From the NCBI GenBank assembly GCA_038040385.1, contig JBBPII010000008.1, positions 109,091 through 173,090 on the forward strand: a stretch of 64,000 bases of DNA, given 5' to 3'. This document shows positions 29,752-62,634 of the stretch, piece by piece. The notes below the pieces were generated by a model. It had not been told where the DNA came from, did not search any database, and worked only from the letters and a program-made list of their open reading frames with translations. The position numbers were made by a program, and so were the translations under genes. Numbering within the stretch: the stretch's first letter is position 1; each line of letters opens with the position of its first letter. The DNA comes from Candidatus Gilichinskyi gelida. Lineage in GTDB: Bacteria; Acidobacteriota; Thermoanaerobaculia; Gp7-AA8.

Positions 29752-29818
29752 GGGTTGCGGGGTCTCGCAGCCACACCCACCGCGAGACCGCGCGACCCCG
29801 AGACCGCGCAACCGCAAC
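29752..29818. repeat. Tandem-octamer palindrome, GCGGTCTC family, copy 1
   Basis: GGTTGCGGGGTCTCGC...GCGAGACCGCGCGACCCCGAGACCGCGCAACCGCAACC, between the TonB-like gene and nfo. The core CGCGACCCCGAGACC(G/T)CGCAACC is shared with 41693-41766. Confidence 0.7.
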
Positions 29819-39719: not shown

Positions 39720-39720
39720 G

Positions 39721-39785
39721 TTCGCTGTTGACCGTTGGCCGTTGGCCGAAACCCCTCGGTCAACAGTCAACAGTCAACGGCGAAC
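39721..39785. repeat. Tandem-heptamer palindrome, GTTGNC family, copy H1 (terminator-like)
   Basis: TTCGCTGTTGACCGTTGGCCGTTGGCCG, loop AAACCCCTC, then GGTCAACAGTCAACAGTCAACGGCGAA. Located between the convergent HIT and AI-2E genes. Confidence 0.75.
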
Positions 39786-39788
39786 GCG

Positions 39789-41657
39789 TCACGCCGGCGG
39801 CGGGACCCTCATCCTTGTCCCGCTGAACGTCACGCTGCGCCCCGACTTCCGGCGCGCCGCCTTGCGCTGCGAGAGGAAGTCCTCCTTCGCCTCGGCCAGC
39901 GTCGACGGCACGTAGGTCGCGCCGGCGGCGAGCGTCTTCTGCCGGTCTCGAGCGAAGGCCGAGCCGCCGGCCACGATCATCAGGTCGGGGAACGACGCGG
40001 AGATCAACTGGATGAGCCCGTAGCCGGCCTCGAGGTGATCGGGGTTCGTGCAGGAGATGAACACCGCCTCGGGGTGCACCTCATTGATGAACGCGAGGAG
40101 CTCGTCGTCGGGAAGGTCGGTGAAGTAATCGATCGCATAGCCGTCGGCGCGCAGCAGTTGAGTGAGCATCAGCGTGCCGAGGGAGAGCCGCTCGCCGGCG
40201 ACGGAGAAGGCGACGATGTGGCGGTCGGGGTCGGGCGTGCCGGCGTTGCGGTCGCCGAAACGGATGATCAGCTCGCGAATCACGTCCTTGATGAAGTGAT
40301 CGTTCGCCGGCGTTATCCGCCGCCGCTCCAGCTCCTCCTGCGCGAAAGTCAGCGTGGGGATGAAGAGGTCGGTGAACATCTCTTCGAGCGTGTCGGTCTC
40401 CGCGTGGCGGTCGGCGATGGCGATGGCGCCGGTGCGGTCGCGCGACAGAAGGCGGTTGTAGAAACTGAGGTATCCCTCGAGCGGATCCTCAGCGCCGAAG
40501 ATGATGGAGAAGATCCGCAGCGCCGGGATGAACTCGCCGCTGACGGTGAGGCAGACCGAGATCGGAGTGGCCAGCAGCAGGCCGACCGGGCCCCACAGGA
40601 AACCCCAGAAGATCGCCGACACTAGCAGCGCCACCGGCGAGACGCCGACGCGGTGCCCGACCACGATCGGCTCGATGAACCCGCCGATGAGCTGGTCGAT
40701 GAGCACGAAGAGTCCCAGGACAGCCAGCGCCGAGTACCAGTTCGGAAAGACGGCGAGGGAGAGGAAGGTCGGCAGCGCCGCGCTCAGCACCGCGCCGACG
40801 TACGGCACGAAACGGAGCAGGCCGGCGATGACGCCCCACAACGGCGCGTGCGGCACGCGCAGCAGAAAGAGTCCGAGCCAGATCAGGATGCCGAAGCAGA
40901 CATTGAGCAGGGCGATGGTCAGCAGATAGCGGCTGATGCGCTGCGACGTCTCGCCGATGGCCTGCGTGGTGACGGTGAGATGCGCGCGCCCGGCGAGCCG
41001 CAGCATCTTGTCGCGGATCTGCTCGCGCTCCTTCAACAGGAAGAAGACCAGCACCACCACGAGGAAGAGAGCGGCGATGAACTCGGCGGTCGGCGCGAGC
41101 GTCTTGTACCGCTGAGCGAAGGTGCGCTGATCGTTGACCACGCGCACTTTGAGGTCCGCACGCTCCGAGCGGTCGGCGGTCTGCTCGGTGACGCGTTGCA
41201 GCGTCCGTTCGACCACGGCGAAGGTGCCACTGGTCGAGGTCCGCTTCAGGAACCGCAGCTTCTGCTCGATCTTCCCGCTGGCGACGGCCTCCGCCACCTC
41301 GCGGGCCACGAGATTGAGCTGCTGGTAGATCCACCACCCGCCGAGCGAAAGCGCGGCGACGGCCAGCCCGAGCGACAGGCTGATCGCGCCGACGCGGCGC
41401 AGGAACGTCCGCTCCAGCACCGAGACGATCGGCGTCAGCAGGAAGGCGAAGAGGACGGCCAGCGCGATCGGCACCACCACCGGCTTCGCCAGATAGAGCA
41501 CGGCGATGACCCCGATGCTGATGAAGAGGATCCGGGCGTTCGACTGCCGCCGGTCCTGCCCCCGCTTGTCCATGAAGGCCGCCGGAAGCTCGGGCATACG
41601 CCTCATGGAGAGGGTGCGGTCGAGATCGTCGGTATCGTCTTCGTCGAAGGGACGCAC
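39789..41657 (-). CDS. AI-2E (PerM/UPF0118) family transporter with a C-terminal B12-binding-like domain
   Basis: About 8 TM helices with AI-2E family motifs, then a ~120-aa Rossmann-like HIVAFSVAGERLSLGTLMLTQLLRADGYAIDY...VAGGSAF tail. Confidence 0.6.
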   Translation of the reverse strand: MRPFDEDDTDDLDRTLSMRRMPELPAAFMDKRGQDRRQSNARILFISIGVIAVLYLAKPVVVPIALAVLFAFLLTPIVSVLERTFLRRVGAISLSLGLAVAALSLGGWWIYQQLNLVAREVAEAVASGKIEQKLRFLKRTSTSGTFAVVERTLQRVTEQTADRSERADLKVRVVNDQRTFAQRYKTLAPTAEFIAALFLVVVLVFFLLKEREQIRDKMLRLAGRAHLTVTTQAIGETSQRISRYLLTIALLNVCFGILIWLGLFLLRVPHAPLWGVIAGLLRFVPYVGAVLSAALPTFLSLAVFPNWYSALAVLGLFVLIDQLIGGFIEPIVVGHRVGVSPVALLVSAIFWGFLWGPVGLLLATPISVCLTVSGEFIPALRIFSIIFGAEDPLEGYLSFYNRLLSRDRTGAIAIADRHAETDTLEEMFTDLFIPTLTFAQEELERRRITPANDHFIKDVIRELIIRFGDRNAGTPDPDRHIVAFSVAGERLSLGTLMLTQLLRADGYAIDYFTDLPDDELLAFINEVHPEAVFISCTNPDHLEAGYGLIQLISASFPDLMIVAGGSAFARDRQKTLAAGATYVPSTLAEAKEDFLSQRKAARRKSGRSVTFSGTRMRVPPPA

Positions 41658-41692
41658 TGAAATCAGTCTACTGCAAGGCTAACGCCCCTAGC

Positions 41693-41766
41693 GGGTTGCG
41701 CGGTCTCGCGGTCTCGCGGTCCCATCCACCGCCGAGACCTCGCGACCCCGAGACCTCGCAACCTCG
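41693..41766. repeat. Tandem-octamer palindrome, GCGGTCTC family, copy 2
   Basis: GGTTGCGCGGTCTCGCGGTCTCGCGGTCCC...GCCGAGACCTCGCGACCCCGAGACCTCGCAACC, in the 5' leader of the CRTAC1-like gene. Confidence 0.75.
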
Positions 41767-41803
41767 GTGCTAAACTTCCGCTACCGGTTCAAAGGAACTC
41801 CCT

Positions 41804-44800
41804 ATGTCCATCAAGCGCGTCGTCCTCGCCCTGTCCCTTCTCTCTTCGTCCGTTTTTGCCCAGCAGACCATCATCGACGAGATCGGCAAGCTGGAGTCCG
41901 TCCGCGACCCGAAGTGCTACGCCACCGCGTCGCGGCTGGAGGACTTCATCTACGGCACGCCGCTGGAGACGCAAGCGCGGTTCGAGAAGATCGCGCTGCA
42001 GAAACGCTTGATCCGCGCGTTGTGGGAGAAGGCCTCGGCCGCGGGCACGGCGCAGGTCACTGTCGACGCGCTGCGGCCGGCGATCCAGCAGCTCATTCCG
42101 TACAAACAACTTGCGAACGGCGACTGGGACGTCGCCGGCACCACGATCACCGCGCGCGACAAGCGGCAGTACGGCAGCGTGGCTTACGCCCTGCGCGCCC
42201 TGCTCGCCGTCCAGCAGGACCTGCTGCTCGATCCCGGCGCGAGGCTCCTCCCGCTCGACACCGCGTCGGTCGAGCTGATGAAAGAGGCGATCGACCTCAC
42301 CACCCTCGCCGCCCTGCAACAGGCGGACGGCGCCGCGCGAAGGCTGAATCAGGAAAAGATCACGCCGGAGCTGCTGACTCGGGCATGGACGAGCTTCGTG
42401 CCCGAAAGTGTAGCGGCGCCCGCTTCGGGCGCCGACGACCGGCGGCCGAGAGCGGCCGCCGCTACACTCGAAAAGTTCGCCACCATCAAGGCCGTGGTCG
42501 CCGAGAAGCTCGAGGCATTCAGCAAGTACAACGACATCGCCGCGCCCGTTTTCCTCCGCAACGTGCAGGTGTACTTTGCGCGCCACCTCTGGCCGACCGA
42601 TCCGGCCGAGGGGAAGGCGTTCAAGGACGAGTTCACCGAGACCATGGTGGCCTGGACGCGCGACGTCACCCTCCTGGCCGAGAAGAACGCGAAGAAGAAC
42701 GGCCACCCGCTCATCCGCGTCACCGACGTCGAGCCGGCGCTGCAGGCCTTCCAGCCGCACGAGATGAACCGCTACGAGGACATCATCTACTTCCCGCGCC
42801 TCCCGCGCGCCGAGCGGGTCACCATCGAGGCCTACGACATCGACGCCTTCCGCGATCCCGGCGTTCACTGGATGTACCTGAGCGAAGTGCTCAACGATCC
42901 GATGTACCCCGGTACGCTGGAGCCAGATCCGTTCGCCGCTGAGCTGCTCACCGAGGGCGCCGCGCAGGAGGGAGTGCTCATCCTCCGCCTCGCCGGGCGC
43001 TTCGCGGAAGCGGAGGACTCCGACCGGCTGAATCGCGGACATCTGGCGAAATCGCTGAAGAACATTCAGACCCTGCTCGACAGGCACGCCTCCATGCCCG
43101 CGGCGAAAAAGGCGCCGGAGACGGTTGTCTCCGCGAAGCCGTCCGCGGTGCCGTCGACGGGAACCTACTTCACCGACGTCACCGGCGCCGCGGGCATCCG
43201 CTTCGAGCACCGCATCTCCGACTGGCTGGCGCGCTTCATCCGCGGCTACACGGTGGTCGAGGGCGGCAACGTGCGCCTTGCCGTTCCTCCCACGTTCGGC
43301 GGCTCGGGCGTGGCGGCCGAGGACATCGACAATGACGGCGACGACGACGTGCTGATCCTCGGCGGCGCGGGCAACGCGCTCTATCTGAATGACGGGAAGG
43401 GCAACTTCAAGGACGTCACCGAATCGGCCGGACTGGGATGGCGGCGCGCCGACGGCAACGCCGGCGAGCCGCGGCAGCCGATCGTCGCCGACTTCGACAA
43501 CGACGGCCTCGAGGACATCCTCATCACCTACGTCGACGACGACCACCGCCTCTACAAGAACCTCGGCAGCGCGCGGTTCGAGGACGTCACCGCGAAGGCG
43601 GGACTCGGCGGGAAGGGCTCGGTCGCCGGGCCGGCCACCACGATCGACTTCGATGGCGACGGCTTGCTCGATCTCTACATCGGCTACTTCGGCGACTACC
43701 TGCACGGCGTGCTGCCGACGCTCTCGCGCTACAACGCGAACGCCCTGCCGGACAAGCTGTTCCGCAACAGGGGCAACCTCCAGTTCCAGGACGTCAGCGC
43801 CGGCAGCGGTGTGGAGAACACCGGCTGGGCGCAGGCCGTCGGCCACGCGGACATTGACGGCGACGGGCGCGAGGACCTCATCTGCGGCAACGACTTCGGC
43901 GTCAACGCCTATTACCGCAACCTCGGCAACGGCAAGTTCGAGAACGTCGCGCAGAAGCTGGGGCTCGACAAGCCGAGCTACACCATGAGCGTCGGCATCA
44001 CCGACTTGAATCGAGACACGTATCCCGACATCTACATCGCCAACATCGTGACCATGGACAAGGACGAGAAGTACGTCCTCCCAGACACCAAGACCCGCAT
44101 GAAGTTCAATCCCGCCAAGATGGCCAACATGCGCGTGGTGGAGGCCAACGATCTCTTCACCTCGGTGGCCCAGAAGGCGAAGCTGCAGTCGTACGAGCAG
44201 TCCAACGCCGTGGGACGCGGCTACAAGTCGACCGGCTGGTCGTGGGACGCCGACTTCTTCGACTACGACAACGACGGCGACGACGATCTCTACTGCGTCA
44301 ACGGCATGAACGAGTACGCGGTTTACTCCAGCGTCAACCCGTACCTGACCGATCCGAGCGGCAAACCGAGCAGCGCGATCCTGCCGGTGGCGGAGAAGGA
44401 GCAGAACGTCTTCTTCGTCAATCAGCGCGGGAAACTGAACGAGGAGTCGAAGGCCAGCGGCGCCGACCTCCTCGGCAACTCCCGCAGCGTGGCGTACTTT
44501 GATGCCGACGCCGACGGCGATCTCGACATGATCGTCAACGCCTTCAACGGCCCGGCGACGCTCTATCGCAACAACAGCCAGTCGAACGGCAACCACTGGA
44601 TCAAGATCCGCCTGACCGGCGATCCAAAGAAGGGCGTCTCGCGCGATGCCATCGGCGCGAAGATCCTCGTCGACAGCGCGCACAACAAAGGCCTCTGGCG
44701 CGAAGTCTTCAGCACCATCGGCTACCTCTCCGTCCATCCGAAGGAGCAGCACCTCGGGCTCGGCAGCGACAAGACGGTGAACGTGACCGTGGTGTGGCCG

Positions 44801-44884
44801 AACGGCGAGCGGGAGAGGTTCAACGGGCTGTCGACGGACCGCGTCCATCGCATCGTGCAGGGCGGCGGCCGCCCGTCATCCTGA
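41804..44884 (+). CDS. Secreted FG-GAP/VCBS-repeat protein with an ASPIC/UnbV C-terminal domain and an uncharacterised ~430-aa N-terminal domain
   Basis: Signal peptide MSIKRVVLALSLLSSSVFAQQ. Repeated DxDxDGxxD FG-GAP-like motifs (DIDNDGDDD, DFDNDGLED, DFDGDGLLD, DIDGDGRED...). C-terminal NGNHWIKIRLTG...GAKILV UnbV-like region. The final GRPSS* comes from REP copy C. Confidence 0.7.
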   Translation: MSIKRVVLALSLLSSSVFAQQTIIDEIGKLESVRDPKCYATASRLEDFIYGTPLETQARFEKIALQKRLIRALWEKASAAGTAQVTVDALRPAIQQLIPYKQLANGDWDVAGTTITARDKRQYGSVAYALRALLAVQQDLLLDPGARLLPLDTASVELMKEAIDLTTLAALQQADGAARRLNQEKITPELLTRAWTSFVPESVAAPASGADDRRPRAAAATLEKFATIKAVVAEKLEAFSKYNDIAAPVFLRNVQVYFARHLWPTDPAEGKAFKDEFTETMVAWTRDVTLLAEKNAKKNGHPLIRVTDVEPALQAFQPHEMNRYEDIIYFPRLPRAERVTIEAYDIDAFRDPGVHWMYLSEVLNDPMYPGTLEPDPFAAELLTEGAAQEGVLILRLAGRFAEAEDSDRLNRGHLAKSLKNIQTLLDRHASMPAAKKAPETVVSAKPSAVPSTGTYFTDVTGAAGIRFEHRISDWLARFIRGYTVVEGGNVRLAVPPTFGGSGVAAEDIDNDGDDDVLILGGAGNALYLNDGKGNFKDVTESAGLGWRRADGNAGEPRQPIVADFDNDGLEDILITYVDDDHRLYKNLGSARFEDVTAKAGLGGKGSVAGPATTIDFDGDGLLDLYIGYFGDYLHGVLPTLSRYNANALPDKLFRNRGNLQFQDVSAGSGVENTGWAQAVGHADIDGDGREDLICGNDFGVNAYYRNLGNGKFENVAQKLGLDKPSYTMSVGITDLNRDTYPDIYIANIVTMDKDEKYVLPDTKTRMKFNPAKMANMRVVEANDLFTSVAQKAKLQSYEQSNAVGRGYKSTGWSWDADFFDYDNDGDDDLYCVNGMNEYAVYSSVNPYLTDPSGKPSSAILPVAEKEQNVFFVNQRGKLNEESKASGADLLGNSRSVAYFDADADGDLDMIVNAFNGPATLYRNNSQSNGNHWIKIRLTGDPKKGVSRDAIGAKILVDSAHNKGLWREVFSTIGYLSVHPKEQHLGLGSDKTVNVTVVWPNGERERFNGLSTDRVHRIVQGGGRPSS

Positions 44885-44949
44885 GCCGCGCAGACGGCGA
44901 AGGATCTCGAAATGCGCATCCTGAGATTCCTCGCTGCGCTCGGAATGAC
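44875..44949. repeat. REP/MITE-like palindromic element, copy C
   Basis: Left arm identical to copy A; right arm diverged to GAGATTCCTCGCTGCGCTCGGAATGAC. Contains the stop of the upstream gene and the ATG plus first ~13 codons of the downstream gene. Confidence 0.8.
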
Positions 44950-46642
44950 GGCGGCACTCGCCGTTCCCGCGCACGCCAACCGGTTGGCCAAAGCCACCAG
45001 CCCCTACCTCCGCCAACACGCGAACAACCCCGTCGACTGGTACCCGTGGGGCGACGCGGCGCTGGCGAAGGCGAAAAAAGAGAACAAGCCGATCTTCCTC
45101 TCCATCGGCTATTCGAGCTGCCACTGGTGCCACGTGATGGAGGCCGAGTCGTTCTCGCAGCCGGACGTCGCCGCGGTGCTCAATCGCGCGTACGTCTCCA
45201 TCAAGGTCGACCGCGAAGAGCGGCCGGACATCGACGCCGCCTACACCGCCGCGGCGCTGAAGCTGCTCGACGAGGCCGGCTGGCCGCTGAATCTCATGCT
45301 CACGCCGGACGGCAAGCCGTTCTTCGCCGCGACGTACCTCTCGAAGGAGCGGCTGATCGACGTCGCCGGCAAGCTGGCGACGGCGTGGCGCGAGCAGCCG
45401 GACCACGTCGCCGCGTCGGCGCGCATGATCGTCACGCAGCTTCGGCCGGCCGCATCCGAGGACGCCGAGGCGCTCGGGCGGCAGGATTTGGACGCCGCCT
45501 ATCGCGAGCTGGCGGCGGAGTTCGACCCGAAGAACGGCGGCTTCGGCGGCGCGCCGAAGTTTCCGTCGCCGCAGAACCTCTTCTTCCTCCTCCGCTACTG
45601 GAAGCGCACCGGCGAACCGCGGGCGCTGGCGATGGTGGAGGCCACGCTACACGCCATGCGCAACAGCGCGCTGTTCGACGCCAAGGCGTTCGGCTTCCAC
45701 CGCTACGCCACCGACGCCGCGTGGCAGAAGCCGCATTTCGAGAAGATGCTGTACGACCAGGCGCTGCTCGCGCTGGCGTACGCCGAGGCGTACCAGGCGA
45801 CGCGGAAGGAGGAGTACGCGGACACCGCGCGCAAGGTGTTCGAGTACGTGCTGCGCGACCTCCGCGCGCCGAACGGCGCGTTCTGGTCGGCAAAGGACGC
45901 CGACAGCGCGAATCGCGACGACAAGATCCTCACTGACTGGAACGGCCTGATGATCGCCGCGCTGGCCGCGGGGGCGACGGCGCTCGACGAGCCGGCGTAC
46001 GCCGCGGCGGCAGCGCGCGCGGCGAAGGCGATCTCGAGCGTCCGCCCCTACCTCGATGACTACGCGTTCTTTATCTGGGGCCTTCTCAACCTGTACGAGG
46101 CGTCGGCCGAGGCGCGGTGGCTGGAGCAGGCCATCCGCCTGCAGGACGAATCGCTCAAGTCGTTCGCCGGCGGCTACATGACGGCATCGGACGATCTCTT
46201 CGTCCGCCTGCGCATCGTCCGCGACTCGGCGACGCCCGCCGGCAACGCCGTGCAGCTCGCGAACCTCCTCCGCCTCTCCCGCATGACCGCCCGCGACAAC
46301 TACGCCGCCGCCGCGAAATCGCTCATGCGCTCCGCCGCCGCCGAGGTGCGCGCCATCCCCTCCGCCGCGCCGCATTTTCTGAGCGCCGTCGACTTCGCCG
46401 TCGGCCCGTCGTTCGAGATCGTGCTCGCGGGGAAGGACGTCGCGCCGCTCAAGCGCGCGGTGTTCAGCTCTTTCGTCCCGAACAAGGTGGTGCTCTACCG
46501 TTCGGACCAAATAGTACGAATCGCACCATTCACCAAAATGCAGACCGCCCGCGGTGGGAAGGCGACGGCGTACGTCTGCCGCGATTACGTGTGCAATCTG
46601 CCGACGGGGGATGCGGGGGTGGTTGCCGAGCTGCTGAAGTAG
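44912..46642 (+). CDS. Secreted thioredoxin-domain protein of the YyaL/DUF255 family
   Basis: [13 protein letters not shown]...[16 protein letters not shown] thioredoxin-like N-terminal domain, then an (alpha/alpha)6-like domain. The N-terminal [22 protein letters not shown] signal peptide is encoded within REP copy C. Confidence 0.8.
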
Positions 46643-46703
46643 GTCACGCGGAGACGCGGAGGGCGCGGAGAGGCTTCCTCCGCATCTCCGCGCCTCCGCG
46701 TGA

Positions 46704-46704
<1 letters not shown>
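46643..46704. terminator. Bidirectional stem-loop between convergent genes
   Basis: GTCACGCGGAGACGCGGAGGGCGCGGAGAGG...CCTCCGCATCTCCGCGCCTCCGCGTGAC is an imperfect ~28-bp stem between the YyaL-like gene and gcvPB. Confidence 0.55.
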
Positions 46705-48157
<1,453 letters not shown>

Positions 48158-48161
<4 letters not shown>

Positions 48162-49552
48162 CGCCGCTCCCTGGCGATCGAAGCATTGAGGGCGTCGACG
48201 AACTGGTCGAGGTGCTCGCGGGTGTGCAGCTCGGTGACGGCGACCAGAAAGTCGTTCGGATGCGCGGGGAAGAACTGCCCCAGCGGAATCCCGCCGAGGA
48301 TTTTCTCGTGCTCGAGGTCGAGGAGGATCTCCGTCGCCGCCACCGGCGTACGGACCACGAACTCGTTGTACACCGGCCCGCTGAACGGCAGCGCCACCGA
48401 CGCGCTCGCGCCGAGGCGCTTGCGCAAATACGCCGCCTTCTGCAGGCACTGCATGCCGACCTCGCGCAGCCCTTCCTTCCCCATCAGCGACAGGTAGATG
48501 TTCGCGGCGAGGGCGATGAGCGCCTCGTTGGTGCAGATGTTCGAGGTGGCCTTGCCGCGGCGGATGTGCTGCTCGCGCGTGGCGAGGGTGAGCACGTAGG
48601 CCCGACGGCCGTCGACGTCGACGGTCTCGCCGACCAGCCGTCCCGGCATGTGCCGCTTGAGCGCGTCGCGCACGACCATGAAGCCGACGTACGGCCCGCC
48701 GAACTGCGGCGGCACGCCCCACGCCTGTCCTTCGCCGACGCAGACGTCGAATCCGTGCGCGCCCGGCGGAGTGAGGATCCCCAGCGACGTCGCCTCGGCC
48801 ACCACCGCGATCTTCACCGCGCCGGCGGCGTCGGCGATCGCGGCGACGTCGTCGTAGTCCTCGATCACGCCGAGGAAGTTCGGCGACTGCACGGCGACGG
48901 CGAAGACGTCGGCGGTGCACGCCTCGCGCAGCGCGGCGGTGTCCACGCGGCCGTCCGCGGTCCAGCCCACTTCCACCACGTCGTAGCCGAGGTTCTGGAT
49001 GTACGTGCGGACCGTGTCGATGTAGTGCGGGTGCACCGATTTGGCGATGACCACCTTGTGGCGGTTCTTGGCCACGCGCTCCGCGAGCAGCACCGCCTCA
49101 CAAAGAGCAGTGGAGCCGTCGTAGAGCGAGGCGTTGGCCACGTCGAGCCCCGTGAGCATGCACTGGTGTGTCTGGTACTCGAAGATCGACTGCAGCGTCC
49201 CCTGCGACACTTCCGGCTGGTACGGCGTGTACGAGGTCAGGAACTCCGCGCGCAGCAGCAGTTGATCGACGCAGGCCGGCTGGGAGTGCGCGTAGGCGCC
49301 GCCGCCGAGGAACGAGACGTGATCGACCGCGGTCTTGTTGCGCGCCGCGAGCGCGCGGAACCAGCGCCGCGACTCGATCTCCGACCAGGGGCCGGGGAGG
49401 TCGAGCAACCGATCGAGCTTCACATCCGCAGGGATGGTGTCGAACAGACGGTCTACCGACTCTACGCCCACCGCGGCGAGCATCTCTTTGACGTCGTCGG
49501 TGGCATTGGGGATGTAGCGGTGTTGGTCAGTGAGGGGATCAGGGAGTGTCAT
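48158..49552 (-). CDS. gcvPA: Glycine dehydrogenase (decarboxylating) subunit 1
   Basis: 464 aa with N-terminal P-protein half motifs. Overlaps gcvPB by 4 nt. Confidence 0.92.
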
Positions 49553-49938: not shown

Positions 49939-49947
49939 GGTCGCTCC

Positions 49948-51042
<1,095 letters not shown>

Positions 51043-51071
51043 GGCATCCTCTCGGGGAGGCGTACGTTAGC

Positions 51072-51965: not shown

Positions 51966-51970
51966 ATTTA

Positions 51971-52059
51971 TCCTGACCCTGAGCGAAGCGAAGGGGAAGG
52001 ATCTGGCGCCCATGTGCGCTGCGCAAGTGGGCGCCAGATCCCTCGCTGCGCTCGGGATA
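51971..52059. repeat. REP/MITE-like palindromic element, divergent copy F
   Basis: CCTGACCCTGAGCGAAGCGAAGGGGAAGGATCTGGCGCCCA...TGGGCGCCAGATCCCTCGCTGCGCTCGGGATAA. The right arm matches the family's GAGATCCTTCGCTGCGCTCGGAATGAC. Confidence 0.7.
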
Positions 52060-52073
52060 AACTAAAAAAACCC

Positions 52074-53918: not shown

Positions 53919-53926
53919 TCGAGCCT

Positions 53927-53983
53927 GTCAAGTAGACTTGACAAACACGGAACTCGATCCTAGATTGTCAAGGAAACTTGACT
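53927..53983. promoter_or_regulatory. Two copies of a 7-4-7 inverted repeat (TGTCAAG-N4-CTTGACA), putative operator for the downstream XRE regulator
   Basis: TGTCAAGTAGACTTGACA at 53927-53944 and TTGTCAAGGAAACTTGAC at 53965-53982. The centres are ~39 bp apart and lie 15–70 bp upstream of the membrane-protein/XRE operon start. Confidence 0.5.
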
Positions 53984-53996
53984 GAAGGGATCGATC

Positions 53997-54419
53997 ATGA
54001 ACGACTGCTCCGACGCCTACACCCCGCGCGACACTCGTAACTTGCGTATTTTCAATGTTTGGGCCATTTCCGCCGCAGTGATGTTTGTGGCGGCCACGAT
54101 CCTGATCTCAAGGGGTATTGTCGCCCGCGGCCCGCTCGCCTGGATCCTGGCGATCGCCAATCTGCTCCTCACGCTCCTCGCCGTGCGCGCTTACATGGTG
54201 TTTCTGCGCGCCGCCGACGAGTTGCTCCGCCGGATCCAGCTCGAAGGTCTGGCCCTCGGCTTCGGGGCGGGTGCGGTCTTCATGCTCAGCTATCGCCTCT
54301 TCGAGCGGCTCGGGGCGCTGAAGCTCGACAGCGCCGACCCGTTCGTCGTCATGGCAATCTTCTGGGCCATCGGGCAGTACATTGGCCTGAGGCGCTACGC
54401 GCCGGGGATGGAGCGATGA
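53997..54419 (+). CDS. Small membrane protein (3–4 TM) co-transcribed with the XRE regulator
   Basis: 140 aa, hydrophobic. Stop overlaps the XRE start (ATGA). Confidence 0.55.
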   Translation: MNDCSDAYTPRDTRNLRIFNVWAISAAVMFVAATILISRGIVARGPLAWILAIANLLLTLLAVRAYMVFLRAADELLRRIQLEGLALGFGAGAVFMLSYRLFERLGALKLDSADPFVVMAIFWAIGQYIGLRRYAPGMER

Positions 54420-54661
54420 TCAACCGGCTGCGGGAGCTGCGCACCGCCCGCGGCTGGTCGCAGGGCGAGCTCGCGGAGCGGCTGGGCGTGTCGCGGCAGA
54501 CGGTCAACGCCATCGAGACGGAAAAGTACGATCCCAGCCTGCCGCTGGCCTTCACTATCGCCGGACTCTTCACGCTGGCCATCGAGGACATCTTCCGCCC
54601 CAACGGCTCGGGAGCCGCTCCGGTCGCGGCGCGGCCGCCGGATCGTGGTTTCATTGACTGA
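54416..54661 (+). CDS. XRE/Cro-C1-family helix-turn-helix transcriptional regulator (YozG-like)
   Basis: 81 aa with a canonical HTH (WSQGELAERLGVSRQTVNAIETEKYDPSLPLAFTIAGLF). Confidence 0.85.
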   Translation: MINRLRELRTARGWSQGELAERLGVSRQTVNAIETEKYDPSLPLAFTIAGLFTLAIEDIFRPNGSGAAPVAARPPDRGFID

Positions 54662-55238
54662 TTCTAGTAAATGACCACGCGCTCCAGTGATGCAATTTAC
54701 GGCGCGGCACGTCGCTACTCCATCCCGTTCTGACGAGCTCTCGGCCAAGAAGGGACCGGAAGGAGGCATGTGTCATAGCCACGACGCTCCCGTGGTTCTC
54801 GGCAAGTTGCCATAACCATTCCGCCGCCGCTCGCGCACGTTGTTCCTCGTCCGTCGTGACGTGCGGACGACGAAGCGCAGCACGGGCGAGCCAACGAACG
54901 CCGTACGTAAGGGCCCACCCGAACATCGGCAGCCGGATTCGTCCAAGCGCCGGCGGAAGCAGCTCGAGCTCGCTCAAGAGTGGTGATGTGAGCACTTCTC
55001 GCCCCGGAGCAAGCACTTTCGCCGACTCAACTGCTCGGCGCGCCACACTCGCCACAAGGATGCCACTGGCTGCGGCGGCTGCCCTCAGCTCCACTGGCGG
55101 GACGTCTTCCGAATCAACGCCAGCCGCTTCGTACGCCTCACGCCAACGGAGGAACTCCGCGCCGTTGATCCAACCGGAATGCACATGGCTAGAACGCCCG
55201 TGCCTTACAAGAACGATCTTCAGGGACACTCTGCACAA
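54651..55238 (-). CDS. Histidine phosphatase (phosphoglycerate-mutase-like) family protein
   Basis: N-terminal RHG motif (IVLVRHGRSSH). 195 aa. Confidence 0.6.
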   Translation of the reverse strand: MCRVSLKIVLVRHGRSSHVHSGWINGAEFLRWREAYEAAGVDSEDVPPVELRAAAAASGILVASVARRAVESAKVLAPGREVLTSPLLSELELLPPALGRIRLPMFGWALTYGVRWLARAALRRPHVTTDEEQRARAAAEWLWQLAENHGSVVAMTHASFRSLLGRELVRTGWSSDVPRRKLHHWSAWSFTRISQ

Positions 55239-55313
55239 AACGTATCATTCCATGTCGCACCCCGCTCCACCGTTTGTCATGCGTGAGCTGTTGTTACGGC
55301 TAGACTCACCCGC

Positions 55314-57292
<1,979 letters not shown>

Positions 57293-57302
<10 letters not shown>

Positions 57303-57378
57303 GCCGCGCAGACGGCGAAGGATCTCGTCCGCGCTACTTGAGATCCTTCCGCTTCGCTTCGCTCAGCGTCAGGATGAC
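57293..57378. repeat. REP/MITE-like palindromic element, copy D
   Basis: Left arm identical to copy A; right arm GAGATCCTTCCGCTTCGCTTCGCTCAGCGTCAGGATGAC. Holds the stop of the plus-strand YyaL gene, and (reverse strand) the last 14 codons plus stop of the minus-strand GT39 gene. Confidence 0.85.
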
Positions 57379-59601
57379 GAGGCGGCGGAACTCGTCCGAC
57401 TTGATCATCCGCCCCGGCACGCGCGCGCGCGGCAGTTTCGCCAGCTCGCGCTCCTCGGCCGGCTCCGGCAGGCGCTGCAGCAGGACGGCGTACGCGCGGC
57501 GCAGGAACGCGCGGTCGTCCTCGCAGTCGCTGCCGTAGGCGATCGTCTCCACGACGTCGTCGAGGTGGAGCTCGCCGCGCGCCAGGCGGGGCCAGACTTC
57601 GAGCGGATCGAATCCGAGGCGGCCGATGAGCGCTTCGACCGGCTCGCGGCAGAGGGTGGCGGGCGGGAAGCGGGTGCGCGTGTTGCGCCATGCGGTTTTC
57701 TCGTCGATGAAGGGGCCGCTCGCCAAGCGAACGGAATACAAGCTTCCAGGCGCGGCAGCTAGTGGATCCTCGACGGCGATCCAGGCGAAGGCGACGGCGA
57801 GCTCGCGACGATCGGTCGCTTTCGGATCGAGGTCGGCCGGCGCCGCCGCCCGCCCGAAGTCGAAGGCCAGCGTGTTCAACCCGTCGCGCCACACCGCGGC
57901 CGGCGCGGCGATCGACCGCTCCGTCCACCCGGGAGCCAGCGTCAGCTCGCCGAGGGGCCGCCCGTTGAGCGAGGCGCGGAGCGTCTGCGCCGGCAGCGCG
58001 CCGTGGTGGAACGGCAGCACGCGCATGCGGATGGTGCGATCGCGCCGGCCCCAGCGCGGAAAGGTCACCGACGCCCGCGTGCCCATCGCCCAGCGGAAGC
58101 CTTCCGGATCCGCCCAGCCGGCGTCGAGATAGCGATTCTCCGCGGCGGCGAGATCGATCAGCAGGCGCGGTCCGATCGCCGCGGACGCCGCCCGCCACTC
58201 CGCGGGGCCGGCCCGCTCCCGAAGAAAATCTCCGGTGTAGTGCAGCCGGAATCGCTCCAAGGGACTGCCCAGAACCATCGGATAGCGGCACATCCAGGCG
58301 CGGACCTCATTGTCGCTGCCGGCGGTGACGAGCCACGCCGCGGGGTGCGCGCCGATCACCAGTTGCGCCACCGAAACGTACGGGACGCCTTCGAGCGTGG
58401 CGCCCTTCGGCAGCCGGCGGAGGTAGTAGCGCAGCGAGACCTCCGTCCAAGGCTGGTCGGCGATGACGACGTCGTCGGGGCGCGCGTACCGTTCGATCTT
58501 CGCCGCGATCGCGCGCCAGTCGAGCTTCCGGAAGGCTTCGGTGCGCGCCGCGCGCCACTCCTGCGACGCCAGCGCAGCGACGATGGCCAACGCCAGCACC
58601 AGCGGCGCGCGTTGGAGCACGAGCCGCGCGACGCTCGCGATGCCGATGCCAGCCAGCAGAACGTAACCGACCAACGCCGGCGTGACGTAGCGCGCCGCGT
58701 AGAAATGGTCCAGGTGCTTCAACGCGCCGAGCGCGATGGCCAGCGGCAGCAGCGCCATTCCTCCGATGACGACGCCCTCGACGCGGTCGCGCCGCATCGC
58801 GGCGACGACGCCGATCAGCGCGAGAGCCAGCATCGCCACCGCCGCCCGCCCGCCGGCGTGCGTGCCCAGCGCCGAAACGGAGAAGGTCCGCAGCAGCGTG
58901 GCGAAGAACGCGTAATCGAGCGGCGGAAACGCCGGCCAGCTCTCGTTGGCCATCGGTTTCGCGGCGTAGACGACGGGGAAAAGCGCCAGCGCGCCGGCAG
59001 CGATGGCGGCGACGATCCAATACCAACGCTTGCCCATGAGCAGCGCTGCCGCGACGGCGACGATCAGCGCCGCGGCGACGACCGGCGCCGCCGTCGCCGA
59101 CGAATAGAGCAGCGCAACGATCAAGGCGGCCGCCGCGGCGATCGAGCGCGCGCGGAGCAGGACGACGATGAGCGCCGCGGTGAGGAACATCATCAGCGCG
59201 TACGGGCGCGCTTCGCGGCTGTAGTAAACGTGCAGCGGCGACACCGCCAGCAGGATCGCAGCGGCTGCCGCCGCCACCGCGTCACGCTGTTTCGCCGCCA
59301 GCCAGACCAGGGCGATGGCCGCCAATCCAAGCAGCGCGGCCGGCAGGCGGCCCGCGGCTTCCGACGAGCCGAACGCGCGCGCCGCCAGTTGCGTCGCGTA
59401 GTAGAGCGGGCCGTGCTCCTCGGCGAAACCGGCCAGCCAGCGCCACCACGGCCCCGAAGCCGCCGCCGTCGTGAGGCGCTGGCCCAGGATCTCGTCGAGC
59501 CAGTAGCTGGGCGTGCCGAGGCCGTCGAAGCGGAGGAAGGCGCCGGCGGCGATGGCCAGAAGCGCTACGGCGTCTTTGGAATGACGACCCAGCCGCTCCA
59601 C
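57334..59601 (-). CDS. GT-C-fold glycosyltransferase (family 39 / ArnT-PMT-like) membrane protein with a large C-terminal soluble domain
   Basis: An N-terminal ~330 aa with ~11 TM helices and ArnT/PMT-like loop motifs, then a ~400-aa soluble region. The start is uncertain because it overlaps the upstream FN3 gene by 37 nt. Confidence 0.6.
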   Translation of the reverse strand: MERLGRHSKDAVALLAIAAGAFLRFDGLGTPSYWLDEILGQRLTTAAASGPWWRWLAGFAEEHGPLYYATQLAARAFGSSEAAGRLPAALLGLAAIALVWLAAKQRDAVAAAAAAILLAVSPLHVYYSREARPYALMMFLTAALIVVLLRARSIAAAAALIVALLYSSATAAPVVAAALIVAVAAALLMGKRWYWIVAAIAAGALALFPVVYAAKPMANESWPAFPPLDYAFFATLLRTFSVSALGTHAGGRAAVAMLALALIGVVAAMRRDRVEGVVIGGMALLPLAIALGALKHLDHFYAARYVTPALVGYVLLAGIGIASVARLVLQRAPLVLALAIVAALASQEWRAARTEAFRKLDWRAIAAKIERYARPDDVVIADQPWTEVSLRYYLRRLPKGATLEGVPYVSVAQLVIGAHPAAWLVTAGSDNEVRAWMCRYPMVLGSPLERFRLHYTGDFLRERAGPAEWRAASAAIGPRLLIDLAAAENRYLDAGWADPEGFRWAMGTRASVTFPRWGRRDRTIRMRVLPFHHGALPAQTLRASLNGRPLGELTLAPGWTERSIAAPAAVWRDGLNTLAFDFGRAAAPADLDPKATDRRELAVAFAWIAVEDPLAAAPGSLYSVRLASGPFIDEKTAWRNTRTRFPPATLCREPVEALIGRLGFDPLEVWPRLARGELHLDDVVETIAYGSDCEDDRAFLRRAYAVLLQRLPEPAEERELAKLPRARVPGRMIKSDEFRRLVILTLSEAKRKDLK

Positions 59602-60647
59602 TTGCGCTCGCTCTCGTTACCGCTCGTGTCGACCGCCGTCACCGCGTAGCGGTAGGAGAGACCGATCCCCGCGGCGCTGTCGACGTAGTACGAGGTCGTG
59701 ATCAGGTTGGCCATCAGCGGCACGTCCACCGCGATTTCCTTGATCGCTTCGTCGTGTCCGACTCCCTCGCGGCGCCAGACGCGGTAGCCGGCCAGATCGG
59801 GGACTTGCACCGGATCCCACACCAGGCGGACGGCCTTCGTTTCGATGAGCAACGAGACGTTCTGCGGCGCAGGCGGCGGCGTGAGGTCCTTGAACGTGAC
59901 GGTTGCCGGCGCCGATGGGTCGGACTCGATGTGCGGCGCGGCGACGGCCGTGACCACGTACGTGAATTTCGCGTACGGCGGGACATCGGTGTATGTCGTC
60001 GCGGAGACCGGCGCGGTGTTGACCGGCTTCGTCTGATCCGTCAGCGTCTGGCCCTCTCCGAGGCGATAGACGTTGTAGCCGGTGAGGGCCGGCTTCGCCT
60101 TCGAGGTGATCGACGTGGCCGGCGCGGTCCAGGTGAGGACCACCCCCTCGGCCTTGGGCGTCGCAGTGAGCGCCGGCGGTGGCACGGGCACGTCGAGCGG
60201 CACGATCGGCGCGAGATTCGACAGGTCGCCGGTGGCGTTCGGCCCTTCGGTGACCACCGCGTACGTCAGCCGGACGGGGCGCCCGTCGCTGCTGTGGAAC
60301 TGCGGGGTGTCCTCGAAGGTCAGGAGCGACCCCTCGGAAGCGGCCGGCAGGTTGGCGCCTTCTATGCTGTCTACCTTGGTCCGGAGCTTCACGAATTGAA
60401 CGGGCGTCAGTGGAGATGCGGCGTTGGGCTCGGTGACGCGGTAGACGACGATGCGGCGGATATTGCTCAGATTCTTCCCCGCCGTCGTCAGCGCCGGATA
60501 TCCCCAGGAGAGAAGAACTTTGGCTCCACGCTGTGCTACAACGAGATCGGTCGTCGCCTTGGGAATGATGGGAACCGGCGGGTGCGGATCGCCGCGCTTG
60601 CCGCAGGCGACGAGAACAAGCAAGAGACACGCACCGAGCCTTTTCAA
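59565..60647 (-). CDS. Lipoprotein with fibronectin-type-III-like repeats
   Basis: Signal peptide plus lipobox (LLLVLVACGK), then repeated beta-rich units (LLSWGYP, VLTWTAP, VRLVWDP). Confidence 0.6.
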   Translation of the reverse strand: MKRLGACLLLVLVACGKRGDPHPPVPIIPKATTDLVVAQRGAKVLLSWGYPALTTAGKNLSNIRRIVVYRVTEPNAASPLTPVQFVKLRTKVDSIEGANLPAASEGSLLTFEDTPQFHSSDGRPVRLTYAVVTEGPNATGDLSNLAPIVPLDVPVPPPALTATPKAEGVVLTWTAPATSITSKAKPALTGYNVYRLGEGQTLTDQTKPVNTAPVSATTYTDVPPYAKFTYVVTAVAAPHIESDPSAPATVTFKDLTPPPAPQNVSLLIETKAVRLVWDPVQVPDLAGYRVWRREGVGHDEAIKEIAVDVPLMANLITTSYYVDSAAGIGLSYRYAVTAVDTSGNESERKWSGWVVIPKTP

Positions 60648-60682
60648 CGGTGCGGATTCTAACGGACATCTCTGGAGAACCC

Positions 60683-62569
60683 ATGTGCGGAATCATCGGT
60701 TACGTCGGCACGCGTGACGTGGTGCCGGTCCTCATCGGCGGACTGAGAAAGCTCGAATACCGCGGCTACGACAGCGCGGGCATCGCCGTGGTGGACGGCA
60801 ACGGCGTGGAAGTGGTGCGCGCCGAGGGGAAGCTGTCGAACCTCGAGGCGAAGCTGGGCGACAAGCCGCTCAAGGGCTCCTTCGGCATGGGCCACACCCG
60901 GTGGGCCACGCACGGCAAGCCGAACGAGAACAACGCTCACCCCCATCGCGACTGCACGGGCAAGGTGGTCGTCATCCACAACGGCATCATCGAGAACTTC
61001 CTCCCGCTCAAGCAGCGGCTGCAGGCGGCGGGACACACGTTCACGACGGAGACCGATACGGAAGTCGTCGCCCATTTGATCGAACAGCACCTGAAGGAGT
61101 TACCAGTTGCCAGTTCCCAGTTGCCGGCCTCTGGCAACGGGCAACAGGCAACAGGCAACTTCGTCGAGGCGGTCAAGCGAACGCTCAAGGAGCTCGAGGG
61201 ACACTATGCCCTCGTGATGATCGACGGAACCGCGCCCGGCACGATCATCGCCGCCAAGCACGGTCCGCCGCTGGTCATCGGCCTCGGCGAGAACGAGAAC
61301 ATCATCGCCTCCGACGTCGCGCCGCTGCTGGCGTACACCCGCAACATCATCTATCTCGAGGATGGCGAGTACGCCATTGCCGACCAGCAGGCGGTGCGCA
61401 TCTTCGACAAGAACGACCACCCGGTCGACCGCCCGCCCAAAAAGATCATGTGGGACGCCGTGATGGCCGAGAAGGAAGGCTACCGGCACTACATGCTCAA
61501 GGAGATCCACGAGCAGCCGCGCGCCGTGCGCGACACCTTCAACGGCCGGATGTTCGAGGAGTCGGGCGAGATCTACTTCAACGACCTCGAATTCACGCCC
61601 GAGCAGTGGGCGAAGTTCAAGAAGGTGCACGTCATCGCCTGCGGCACGTCGTGGCACGCCGGGCTGGTCGGGAAGTTTCTCCTCGAAGACGCGGCGCGGA
61701 TTCCGATCGAAGTCGACTACGGCTCCGAGTACCGCTACCGCAACCCGATCGTCGACGAAACCACGCTGGTCATCGGCGTGACGCAGTCCGGTGAGACTGC
61801 CGACACCATCGCCGGCATGCAGGAGGCGAAGGCAAAGGGGGCGAAGCTGATCACCATCTGCAACGTGATCGGCGCCGCCGCCACGCGCATGGCCGACGGC
61901 GTGATCTACACCAACGCCGGCCCGGAGATCGGCGTGGCGTCGACCAAGGCTTTCACCACGCAGCTCACCGCGTTCTACCTGCTGGCGCTGTACATCCGCC
62001 AGCTTCGCGGCGACGACATCGACGACCGCCGTTACGCCATGCACGAGATGCGGGTCATCCCGCACAAGATCGAGACCATCCTCAAGACGCAGGAGAAACA
62101 CATCGAGGAGCTGGCGCACAAGTACTACAAATCGCAGGACTTCCTCTACCTGGGCCGCGGGGTCAATTACCCCATCGCGCTCGAGGGGGCGCTCAAGTTG
62201 AAGGAGATCTCGTACATCCACGCGGAAGGGTATCCGGCGGGGGAGATGAAGCACGGCCCGATCGCCCTCATCGACGAGAACCTGCCGGTGGTCGCCGTGG
62301 CCACCCACACGCCGGTCTACGACAAGGTGCTGTCGAACCTGCAGGAAGTGAAGGCCCGCGACGGCAAACTGATCGTGATCTGCGACGAGCACGACGAGGC
62401 CATGAAGACGTTCGCCGATGACGTGATCGAGGTGCCGTGGACCATCGAGCCGCTGCAGCCGATCCTCACCGTGGTGCCGACGCAGCTCCTGGCGTACTAC
62501 ATCGCCTTGCGCCGCGGCGCCGACATCGACCAGCCGCGGAACCTGGCGAAGAGCGTGACGGTGGAGTGA
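60683..62569 (+). CDS. glmS: Glutamine--fructose-6-phosphate aminotransferase carrying an in-frame ~17–20-aa insertion
   Basis: MCGIIGYVG Ntn-glutaminase start, SIS domains, and the C-terminal ..PRNLAKSVTVE. 628 aa from the internal Met. Confidence 0.93.
   Translation: MCGIIGYVGTRDVVPVLIGGLRKLEYRGYDSAGIAVVDGNGVEVVRAEGKLSNLEAKLGDKPLKGSFGMGHTRWATHGKPNENNAHPHRDCTGKVVVIHNGIIENFLPLKQRLQAAGHTFTTETDTEVVAHLIEQHLKELPVASSQLPASGNGQQATGNFVEAVKRTLKELEGHYALVMIDGTAPGTIIAAKHGPPLVIGLGENENIIASDVAPLLAYTRNIIYLEDGEYAIADQQAVRIFDKNDHPVDRPPKKIMWDAVMAEKEGYRHYMLKEIHEQPRAVRDTFNGRMFEESGEIYFNDLEFTPEQWAKFKKVHVIACGTSWHAGLVGKFLLEDAARIPIEVDYGSEYRYRNPIVDETTLVIGVTQSGETADTIAGMQEAKAKGAKLITICNVIGAAATRMADGVIYTNAGPEIGVASTKAFTTQLTAFYLLALYIRQLRGDDIDDRRYAMHEMRVIPHKIETILKTQEKHIEELAHKYYKSQDFLYLGRGVNYPIALEGALKLKEISYIHAEGYPAGEMKHGPIALIDENLPVVAVATHTPVYDKVLSNLQEVKARDGKLIVICDEHDEAMKTFADDVIEVPWTIEPLQPILTVVPTQLLAYYIALRRGADIDQPRNLAKSVTVE
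61098..61160. repeat. Tandem-heptamer palindrome, GTTGNC family, copy H2, inside the glmS CDS
   Basis: GTTACCAGTTGCCAGTTCCCAGTTGCCGG-CCTC-TGGCAACGGGCAACAGGCAACAGGCAAC. Encodes ..LPVASSQLPASGNGQQATGN.., which is absent from E. coli GlmS at this loop. Confidence 0.75.
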
Positions 62570-62575
62570 GAAGAG

Positions 62576-62626
62576 AGTTGTCAGTTGTCGGTTGTCAGTT
62601 GTCGACAACCGATAACCGACAACTGA
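62576..62626. repeat. Tandem-heptamer palindrome, GTTGNC family, copy H3 (terminator-like, after glmS)
   Basis: AGTTGTCAGTTGTCGGTTGTCAGTTGTCG / CGACAACCGATAACCGACAACTGA, 6 nt after the glmS stop. Confidence 0.8.
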
Positions 62627-62634
62627 GAACCTTC

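Follow-up and report, generated by a model that had tools for sequence, protein, structure and literature searches.

A 64,000-nucleotide stretch of Candidatus Gilichinskyi gelida (Acidobacteriota; Thermoanaerobaculia), which is about 66% GC and is called the window below, carries three palindromes, H1, H2 and H3, whose arms are built from tandem heptamers. These hairpins are real and non-random, they belong to one family, and they show a strict polarity in which the 5' arm is invariably the G-rich one. We take them, with a probability of about 0.6, to be small palindromic repeat elements comparable to repetitive extragenic palindromic (REP) sequences and to Rickettsia palindromic elements (RPEs), with arms composed of YAACNGN-type heptamer (or octamer) simple repeats.

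All three hairpins are read directly in the window at the sites given in a first-pass annotation, and they share the single architecture proposed there. The 5' arm consists of three or four tandem GTTGNCN units, which the 3' arm complements with an array of NGNCAAC.

39720..39785, no strand assigned: H1 hairpin; 5' arm 39720-39749, (GTTGRCC)x3 + GTTCGCT; loop AACCCC, 39750-39755; 3' arm 39756-39785. Letters: GTTCGCT GTTGACC GTTGGCC GTTGGCC GA / AACCCC / TC GGTCAAC AGTCAAC AGTCAAC GGCGAAC
61098..61160, + strand: H2 hairpin; 5' arm 61098-61125, (AGTTGCC)x4; loop GGCCTCT, 61126-61132; 3' arm 61133-61160, (GGCAACN)x4. Letters: AGTTACC AGTTGCC AGTTCCC AGTTGCC / GGCCTCT / GGCAACG GGCAACA GGCAACA GGCAACT
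62577..62630, no strand assigned: H3 hairpin; (GTTGTCR)x4 / (YGAYAAC)x4, with a perfect center and a loop length of zero. Letters: GTTGTCA GTTGTCG GTTGTCA GTTGTC / GACAAC CGATAAC CGACAAC TGAGAAC

The unit of H3 had been typed as an 8-mer, and it is the heptamer GTTGTCR. Pairing in H3 continues outward between GAAG (62570-62573) and CTTC (62631-62634), and the junction between glmS and ogt is thereby filled.

Allowing at most one mismatch, GTTGNCNGTTGNC has 20 matches in the window where 3.1 are expected (maximum of 7 in 100 shuffles), and 18 of these 20 fall inside the three hairpins. Tandem Repeats Finder assigns a period of 7 to all six arms, with 2.9-4.1 copies each. Our own scan for ungapped inverted repeats works hairpin-first, while a stricter tandem-run detector had detected H1 only. 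Hairpins scoring at least 14 number five in the 64-kb window and zero in five Markov shuffles. Tandem-periodic arms are found in the three strongest hairpins of the window and in 7 of the 12 that score at least 13. Folded as RNA, H1 reaches -46.8 kcal/mol (z = -7.3) on the + strand and -41.7 kcal/mol on the - strand, H2 reaches -40.2 kcal/mol (z = -5.9), and H3 reaches -37.9 kcal/mol (z = -7.9). The stems are composed of six-pair blocks, frequently split by a 1x1 mismatch at base seven. The palindromes H1 and H3 lie outside genes, and their arms measure 27-30 nt, within the 20-40 nt size range of REP-like units. Rfam scans at the gathering cut-off and at E <= 1 return no match to any of the hairpins.

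An assembly artefact can be set aside. The architecture recurs in isolate and closed genomes (for example Microcoleus vaginatus CP031705 and a Pyrinomonadaceae chromosome), and the in-frame copy in glmS is also found in 11 independent assemblies.

Distribution and polarity of the family

The strict pattern (GTTGNCN)3-N0-30-(NGNCAAC)3 occurs in at least 117 genome stretches of a species-representative genome collection, with phyla taken from record titles. Among the matches listed, 31 are from Acidobacteriota, 30 from Cyanobacteria (Microcoleus, Nostoc, Tolypothrix and Tychonema), 20 from Bacteroidota, 13 from Proteobacteria (Steroidobacter, Thiocystis and others), 11 from Chloroflexia, 7 from Planctomycetota and 2 from Desulfobacterota, with one each from Myxococcota, Bdellovibrionota and Schekmanbacteria; their GC content spans 35-69%. 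The first-pass annotation had made its case depend on further copies elsewhere in the genome, and more copies of the family do exist.

The order of the two arms is fixed. In the viral collection IMG/VR, 11 contigs contain the strict head-to-head pattern and none contains the tail-to-tail arrangement with the CAAC arm first, so the units always point toward the center of the hairpin. Two scrambled cores with the same architecture have no match in this collection. A similar bias holds for other units when the detector is blind to orientation: among 44 periodic hairpins, the 5' arm has more G than C in 34 and less in 5 (p = 2e-6), compared with 95 and 54 for ordinary hairpins.

Two positions of the GTTG-type unit are free and take all four bases across 122 hairpins. 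Watson-Crick pairing between the arms is nevertheless present in 82% and 66% of cells at these positions, figures that are somewhat inflated by a detector that itself requires complementarity, compared with 34% after shuffling (maximum 40%). This difference indicates that complementarity is kept at positions that vary freely among copies. The unit is not confined to palindromes. Direct arrays of the GTTGNC type number 34 in 27 viral contigs, with an inverted partner in only one, and the existence of these long arrays shows that the unit is a general heptamer simple-sequence repeat of which the palindrome is one form. Other units with the hairpin architecture include GATGAAN, GAATGCG, AAAGCGG, TGCTGAG, AGTCTCAA and ACGCGGAG, which were met in the flanks of seeded loci and at unseeded glmS loci.

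The window itself contains four palindromes that share the build of H1-H3 with units of 8 nt. They lie in tandem, convergent and divergent junctions and fit from codon to codon. The heptamer hairpins are consequently not separate in kind from these octamer palindromes, and the label of a second repeat family does not hold.

15238..15303, no strand assigned: octamer palindrome; (GGTTGCGN) arms; between two - strand genes, adjoining the terminator at 15310-15335
29751..29813, no strand assigned: octamer palindrome; GGTTGCGG GGTCTCGC ...; fills the stop-to-start gap between a TonB_C gene and an AP_endonuc_2 gene
41694..41763, no strand assigned: octamer palindrome; GGTTGCGC GGTCTCGC x2 ...; in a divergent junction
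46647..46700, no strand assigned: octamer palindrome; ACGCGGAG; fills a convergent junction with stops at 46642 and 46704; unit also present in locus L123 of another genome

The arm units of these octamers are of a GGTTGCGN/GGTCTCGC type and a ACGCGGAG type, and the palindromes at 29751 and 41694 have a 16-nt higher-order pattern in common.

In-frame insertion into an essential enzyme had been considered unusual for a palindrome of this kind, and the glmS copy proves not to be unique. Three further in-frame copies in conserved proteins, from three other phyla or classes, occur among the at least 117 sampled hairpins:

L029: in-frame GTTGNC palindrome in the GIDA domain of MnmG/GidA, from an Acidobacteriaceae metagenome-assembled genome (MAG)
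L082: in-frame GTTGNC palindrome in the DEAD domain of an Lhr helicase, from Puia
L085: in-frame GTTGNC palindrome in the linker joining both ATPase halves of an ABC protein, from Thiocystis violascens

All of these, like the copy in glmS, are palindromic in-frame insertions that are absent from orthologues, as RPEs are. The GTTGCC subtype is the one seen in frame in proteins. Its GTTGCC/GGCAAC units are free of stop codons in all frames, so that a loop could tolerate any copy whose length is a multiple of three. The GidA open reading frame of L029 also has a second, shorter repeat-encoded stretch, VVGCQLSVAG, further downstream.

Two groups of matches have features of their own. In Microcoleus (L028, L039, L046, L090, L093, L094 and L114) the GTTGACN hairpin is located inside a larger dispersed repeat with conserved flanks, GCATCGGAATAGTAAATTCGA ... 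ATCAT..GGTGTAACCGG, which looks like a composite element of the miniature inverted-repeat transposable element (MITE) kind. An Acidobacteriota subfamily, mostly from Thermoanaerobaculia (L024, L050, L051, L063, L067, L087, L106, L109 and L112), has conserved arms ending GTTGTCTGTG ... CACAGACAAC around a center of 16-30 nt that is different in each copy.

Turnover at orthologous gene junctions

The genes that border H1 and H3, and one site that is empty in the window, are as follows.

39366..39719, + strand: HIT-family gene with an HIHFHLL motif; its stop codon TAG (39717-39719) abuts H1
39789..41657, - strand: AI-2E transporter / B12-binding gene; its stop codon (39789-39791) is convergent on H1 and its 5' end faces the octamer hairpin at 41694
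60664..60682, + strand: empty site upstream of glmS; only TC stands where relatives hold a (GATGAAN)n hairpin
60683..62569, + strand: glmS (glutamine--fructose-6-phosphate transaminase), 628 aa; stop codon TGA at 62567-62569; contains H2
62635..63114, + strand: ogt (6-O-methylguanine DNA methyltransferase); PF01035 and PF02870

H1 occupies the entire 69-nt gap between the convergent stop codons of its two neighbors. H3 begins 7 nt past the glmS stop codon and ends 4 nt ahead of the ATG of ogt (62635), upstream of which no Shine-Dalgarno sequence is visible. The elements fill gene junctions exactly, from a stop codon to the next stop or start codon.

Related genomes have different occupants at the same sites. 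A (GATGAAN)n hairpin is found immediately upstream of the glmS start in L001, L142, L143, L144, L151, L152 and L220 and in partial form in L003, while the site is cleanly empty in the window, L002, L005 and L006. In the relatives that have it, this hairpin lies in a 35-nt divergent junction, 0 to ~11 nt from the ATG. The L001 copy (5303-5375) is bounded by GGACATC and TGGAGAACCC and abuts a GGAG box, which lies in the gap before the start codon. The variable base of GATGAAN may be C, G or A, and it is uniform per locus and across both arms; the more distant L163 has a different heptamer unit at this position. On the 3' side of glmS, the occupant is GTTGTCR in the window, GTTGGCA in L003 and a GGTTGCC array in L219. 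Other relatives have nothing or another element here, and in L006 glmS and ogt overlap without a spacer.

A further comparison is between L003 and L145, which are syntenic over 20 kb at 83-93% identity. Nearly all of their junctions differ in the palindromic occupant, and the coding sequence is conserved up to the very stop and start codons. A GTTGCC hairpin in one corresponds to 12 nt between two stop codons in the other, and other junctions pair a 125-nt element with an octamer hairpin, a GTTGGCA hairpin with a 125-nt element, and a 92-nt palindrome with 2 nt. Signs of dispersal are also present. One arm, idiosyncratic in its third unit (AACGATGAACGATGAAGGATGAACGATGA), recurs without change at unrelated loci of two genomes (L001 and L057), and three copies in one MAG (L051, L063 and L067) have the same arms and inner bases with different loops.

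Orthologous intergenic hairpins differ in unit number between relatives, none of which are strain-level comparisons. Behavior of the slippage type, suggested earlier as the mode of generation, is accordingly seen at orthologous sites, where the variable base changes in all units and both arms together and the copy number differs. The elements behave as discrete, replaceable units that are afterwards homogenized locally.

The copy inside glmS

H2 encodes LPVASSQLPASGNGQQA plus TGN. The net insertion is 17 residues, or 51 nt (61100-61150), whether the comparison is with E. coli GlmS (1XFF/4AMV alignment) or with the orthologues of 611 residues. The copy had been described as lying in frame in the glutaminase domain, which it does, and as replacing a short loop, which must be amended since the change is a net insertion and not an equal-length replacement. 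The encoded GlmS is 100% identical to P0001, an Acidobacteriota MAG protein, and chains of GlmS in the PDB match it at E ~1e-65. The insert falls between two helices of the glutaminase domain (125-139 and 155-170) and is modeled as a coil with a predicted local distance difference test score (pLDDT) below 50, in a low-confidence model with a mean pLDDT of 61.5.

An insert at the same place is present in 13 of 120 listed GlmS relatives. We analyzed the DNA of 11 insert-bearing orthologues, the window and 10 of these relatives, and the heptamer symmetry is kept in all of them, with folds of -36 to -49 kcal/mol. No orthologue therefore presents the case raised in the first-pass annotation, the same segment without DNA symmetry. 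Insert lengths differ by -6, +3 or -3 nt and never by 7, as expected under a frame constraint that admits only multiples of three. A perfect third unit would encode Cys, and each lineage instead has Ser, Gly or Ala through different single-base changes, which shows that selection sees the peptide.

The peptide is nonetheless poorly conserved. Amino-acid identity is 73% in the insert compared with 88% in the remaining GlmS, which places it among the least conserved 5% of 22-residue windows in the protein. Four-fold sites show the opposite trend, with 73% conserved in the insert compared with 63% in the remaining glmS, and this contrast ranks in the top 2.6% of windows. It is suggestive of DNA-level constraint or homogenization, and it is not proof of either. 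The real insert DNA is also more stable than its synonymous recodings in 11 of 11 orthologues (z = -1.0 to -4.6), and the recodings still fold at -26 to -33 kcal/mol. With ~20% synonymous change per lineage, plain inheritance would yield this result as well, so it shows only that the symmetry exceeds what the peptide requires.

The insert is polyphyletic on GlmS trees. Its distribution takes six parsimony steps on the main tree, four to six in 30 bootstrap trees, and four with the N-terminal domain alone. The window glmS is 90.7% identical to that of L006, which has no insert, and 87% identical to that of L003, which has one; L003 in turn shows 92.9% DNA identity to L145, which has none. The inserts share their site, their frame and a near-identical loop (GGCCTCT or GGCCTCC), which points to a single origin, and they have diverged like their host genes (83% compared with 85% nt identity). 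All empty alleles have the length of the outgroup. Both repeated precise loss and repeated site-specific gain fit these observations. Recombination within glmS was considered as the cause of the patchiness and rejected because the N-terminal-domain trees still require their four steps. An ACCGGC in the native loop of L145, a candidate scar of a deleted hairpin, is too short to tell from chance. A metagenome scan for more insert-bearing glmS DNA, made with generic peptide patterns, returned insert-less orthologues only among the matches listed; they served instead for an unbiased census and as examples of the empty site.

Origin and possible role of the hairpins

Several known repeat systems resemble the hairpins in part. 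The REP, bacterial interspersed mosaic element (BIME) and REP doublet (REPIN) sequences of enterobacteria and pseudomonads are short imperfect palindromes of gene junctions that form stable stem-loops without a U tract and are thought to protect mRNA 3' ends. The position, the missing U tract and the variable presence between relatives are all shared with the hairpins described here. However, REPs have one conserved sequence per genome with a GTAG-type head and an associated gene for a REP-associated tyrosine transposase (RAYT), whereas the H1-H3 class is locus-specific in sequence and has simple-sequence repeats for arms. A single genome-wide consensus is found neither in H1-H3 nor in four copies on one 5-Mb Acidobacteriota contig. 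RPEs, reported by Ogata et al. in 2000, are said to lie in frame in housekeeping protein genes, with the peptide at the protein surface and the gene functional. The glmS copy is likewise palindromic repeat DNA in frame in a housekeeping gene. RPEs are reportedly 100-150 nt long, not built from tandem repeats and restricted to Rickettsia, whereas the glmS copy measures 51-63 nt (insert 51, hairpin 63), is built from heptamers and has an architecture that crosses phyla. In comparison with MITEs, H1, H2 and H3 are each wholly an inverted repeat, and the only hint of a duplication is the TGA flanking H3.

Heptamer simple repeats form the other group of relatives. The short tandemly repeated repetitive (STRR) heptamers of cyanobacteria and the long simple-sequence repeats of Mrazek et al. 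(described in 2007) are reportedly related systems. Among long simple repeats in bacteria, heptamers are the most over-represented, and slippage of the polymerase has been proposed as their cause, according to Mrazek 2007 as cited in PMC4679880 and PMC4692102; from their first report onward, no explanation of heptanucleotide repeats has gained acceptance (PMC4679880, PMC4692102). The closest match is the TAACTGA direct repeat that MacGregor (2015) described in Beggiatoaceae, Thiocystis, Cyanobacteria and Bacteroidetes, frequently just upstream of start codons without ribosome-binding sites and with its function left open (PMC4679880). That study found no scrambled units, a single inverted repeat in the BOGUAY genome and indels in 7-nt steps between strains, and its Table 3 includes the one-base variant CAACTGA, which encodes QLTTDN / SVVSCQL (PMC4679880). 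The 3' arm of H3, which contains CAACCGA TAACCGA CAACTGA, or (CAACYGA)n, differs from TAACTGA by one base, and the units of H1 (CAACAGT) and H2 (CAACNGG) likewise fit YAACNGN. The two sets of repeats thus share the 7-nt period, the YAACNGN unit, a mostly intergenic location near starts without Shine-Dalgarno sequences and the absence of scrambled units, and Cyanobacteria, Bacteroidetes and Thiocystis appear in both surveys. They differ in that the known arrays are direct, whereas those described here face each other head-to-head as strictly polar palindromes, with short arms of 3-5 units, a GC-rich unit in an Acidobacteriota host at 66% GC, and copies inside conserved catalytic domains of housekeeping enzymes. 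The G-rich GGGAATC / GGGGAYT heptamers of Xanthomonas and Nostoc (Rehm 2015) are intergenic, keep their position from one related species to another while varying in length, and some are inverted pairs able to form stem-loops (PMC4692102). Intergenic heptamer arrays and stem-loop-capable inverted pairs are therefore common to both, although the unit in that case forms G-quadruplexes, the inverted form is exceptional and no coding copies are reported. A limited literature search found no description of the head-to-head palindromic form as a class, of its polarity, of its presence in Acidobacteriota or of copies in catalytic domains.

If the hairpins are REP/RPE-like elements, they would arrive by insertion or recombinational exchange, as REP, MITE or RPE elements do. 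They could then be maintained and reshaped by 7-nt replication slippage together with arm-to-arm copying through quasi-palindrome template switching. Transcribed within mRNAs as highly stable stem-loops, they may act, if at all, as REP-like punctuation that protects 3' ends or modulates a neighboring start codon; intrinsic termination would not be their role. In glmS, the copy would ride as a tolerated passenger in the surface loop that connects two helices of the glutaminase domain.

A number of points weigh against this reading. The function and the generating mechanism given here, and with them every functional statement, are ones that we infer. No transposase was found, and no search aimed at transposases was made. 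Target-site duplication is not consistent: H1, 29751, the glmS 5' site and L003 8770-8842 show none, and the sole hint of one is at H3, which is flanked by a TGA on each side when set against the overlapping glmS and ogt genes of L006. The three copies in the window all differ from one another at the N of GTTGNC and at the spacer base, the four copies on the 5-Mb contig (L106, L109, L123 and L127) all differ too, and no recent identical copies were found. Compensatory changes within the glmS hairpin amount to 0 of 28 pairs, and its 84% pairing is what nucleotide conservation alone would give; with no double-sided change, we claim no selection on structure from the covariation test. The patchy distribution of the insert, with four to six events among copies that have diverged as the gene has, is not simply predicted if the insert is a passive passenger. 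The complementarity required by the detector inflates the pairing percentages, and seeding of the genome scan on GTTGNC makes the dominance of this core partly a matter of construction, even though other units did appear in the flanks. The interest of the family rests on its cross-phylum core, the strictness of its polarity and the patchy record of the insert in glmS, none of which the reading above explains.

It is possible, although we regard it as doubtful, that the hairpins are actively mobile non-autonomous elements and serve as substrates of an HUH/Y1-type single-strand DNA transposase of the IS200/IS605 or RAYT-like kind. Such enzymes recognize hairpins, insert without target duplication and excise precisely, a mode that would give clean empty sites and repeated gain and loss at the same glmS site. 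Filled and empty sites are indeed clean and lack a consistent duplication, L001 and L057 have identical arms at unrelated loci, the glmS insert is polyphyletic with each empty allele at outgroup length, the strict polarity suits a strand-specific process, and the Microcoleus copies lie within a larger repeat with conserved flanks. However, the transposase gene itself was not found (though none was searched for), no genome has near-identical copies, as the four differing copies on the 5-Mb contig illustrate, the unit sequences are locus-specific, and the glmS copies give no sign of recent movement, having diverged to the same degree as the genes that host them.

A protein-binding array, which the first-pass annotation also suggested, is somewhat less likely still. 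The heptamers would here be iterated sites for a conserved RNA- or DNA-binding protein, such as the S1, Csp or CsrA proteins proposed for TAACTGA, and the palindromic form would be a structured regulatory element that controls translation or stability of the flanking genes. This idea is consistent with the same core recurring across phyla at 35-69% GC while scrambled cores are absent, with the 4-nt distance of H3 from an ogt start that has no Shine-Dalgarno sequence, and with the relatives that keep a heptamer hairpin near the glmS start while the unit sequence changes. Heptamer repeats are also reported to affect recF and recO expression in Nostoc (preprint 10.1101/2022.06.06.494920). On the other hand, the elements are dispensable wherever orthologous sites were compared, since some relatives have them and others do not, and many unrelated unit sequences have the same architecture. 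Repeats in a hairpin are base-paired and hence unavailable as single-stranded sites, and we know of no protein that binds them.

An unlikely but far-reaching alternative is that the elements are made or moved by one polar, hairpin-specific process that operates across phyla, with single-strand hairpin transposition with precise excision and fold-back completion of a templated heptamer array as candidates. A single process of this kind would explain the 5' G-rich arm, the core that extends from Acidobacteriota to Cyanobacteria and the at least four gains or losses at one glmS loop, and the last of these would amount to a homing-like preference for one site within an essential gene. Should a dedicated mechanism lie behind the polarity and the repeated gain or loss in glmS, the hairpins would represent a new type of small mobile or self-renewing DNA. 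Otherwise, much of the turnover between genes in these Acidobacteriota is still due to them. In either case they offer new handles on heptamer repeats, namely a palindromic form with a strict polarity rule and a core common to at least nine phylum-level groups, and the in-frame copies in GlmS, GidA and Lhr can be dated and traced on gene trees. The hairpins are also a source of spurious low-complexity open reading frames and of loop insertions in annotated proteins.

H1 and H3 had been likened to terminators at gene 3' ends, and this likeness is borne out for their position and not for their anatomy. H1, H2 and H3 all lack a following T run, on both strands, and a terminator scan of the window flags none of them. 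The organism uses ordinary terminators, as indicated by a canonical intrinsic one at 15310-15335 on the - strand (GGCGGCCGAGAGGCCGCC then GTTTT) that directly adjoins the octamer hairpin at 15238. Sister copies also occupy a divergent junction in the window (41694) and, in relatives, the 5' leader of glmS, and together with the missing T run this reduces the terminator likeness to position only. H1-H3 are not canonical intrinsic terminators. They could be unusual bidirectional, factor-independent terminators that lack a U tract, since H1 and 46647 fill convergent junctions, H3 and 29751 directly follow stop codons, and the stems are very stable in both orientations. This is very improbable, however, because termination would do harm in divergent junctions, in 5' leaders and inside glmS, and H3 would cut off ogt only 4 nt before its ATG.

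We give least credence of all to the view that the glmS segment is a selected protein loop with incidental DNA symmetry, which the retention of the segment in 13 of 13 insert-bearing proteins, the replaced Cys codon and the folding of synonymous recodings might favor, but which conflicts with the poor conservation of the peptide beside above-average four-fold sites, the extra stability of the real DNA in every orthologue, the close relatives and E. coli that do without the segment, and the match of its sequence and architecture to the intergenic family.

Several other features of the window were recorded. tRNA-Ser(GCT) at 36093-36177 (- strand) is detected by ARAGORN and is missing from both Rfam scans of the window. 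A further palindrome family, GAAGGATCT...AGATCCTTC, is found at 27254-27292, 38524-38558, 51996-52044 and 57317-57349. It looks related to a 115-125-nt element of relatives (L145 4569-4683 and 11474-11598; L003 6695-6825), and the 115-125-nt repeat element also occurs downstream of glmS in L005 and L220. A small G-rich heptamer repeat with a different unit, GGGGTGT x2.9, is located at 133-152 beside CCCCCACCC in apparent coding sequence.

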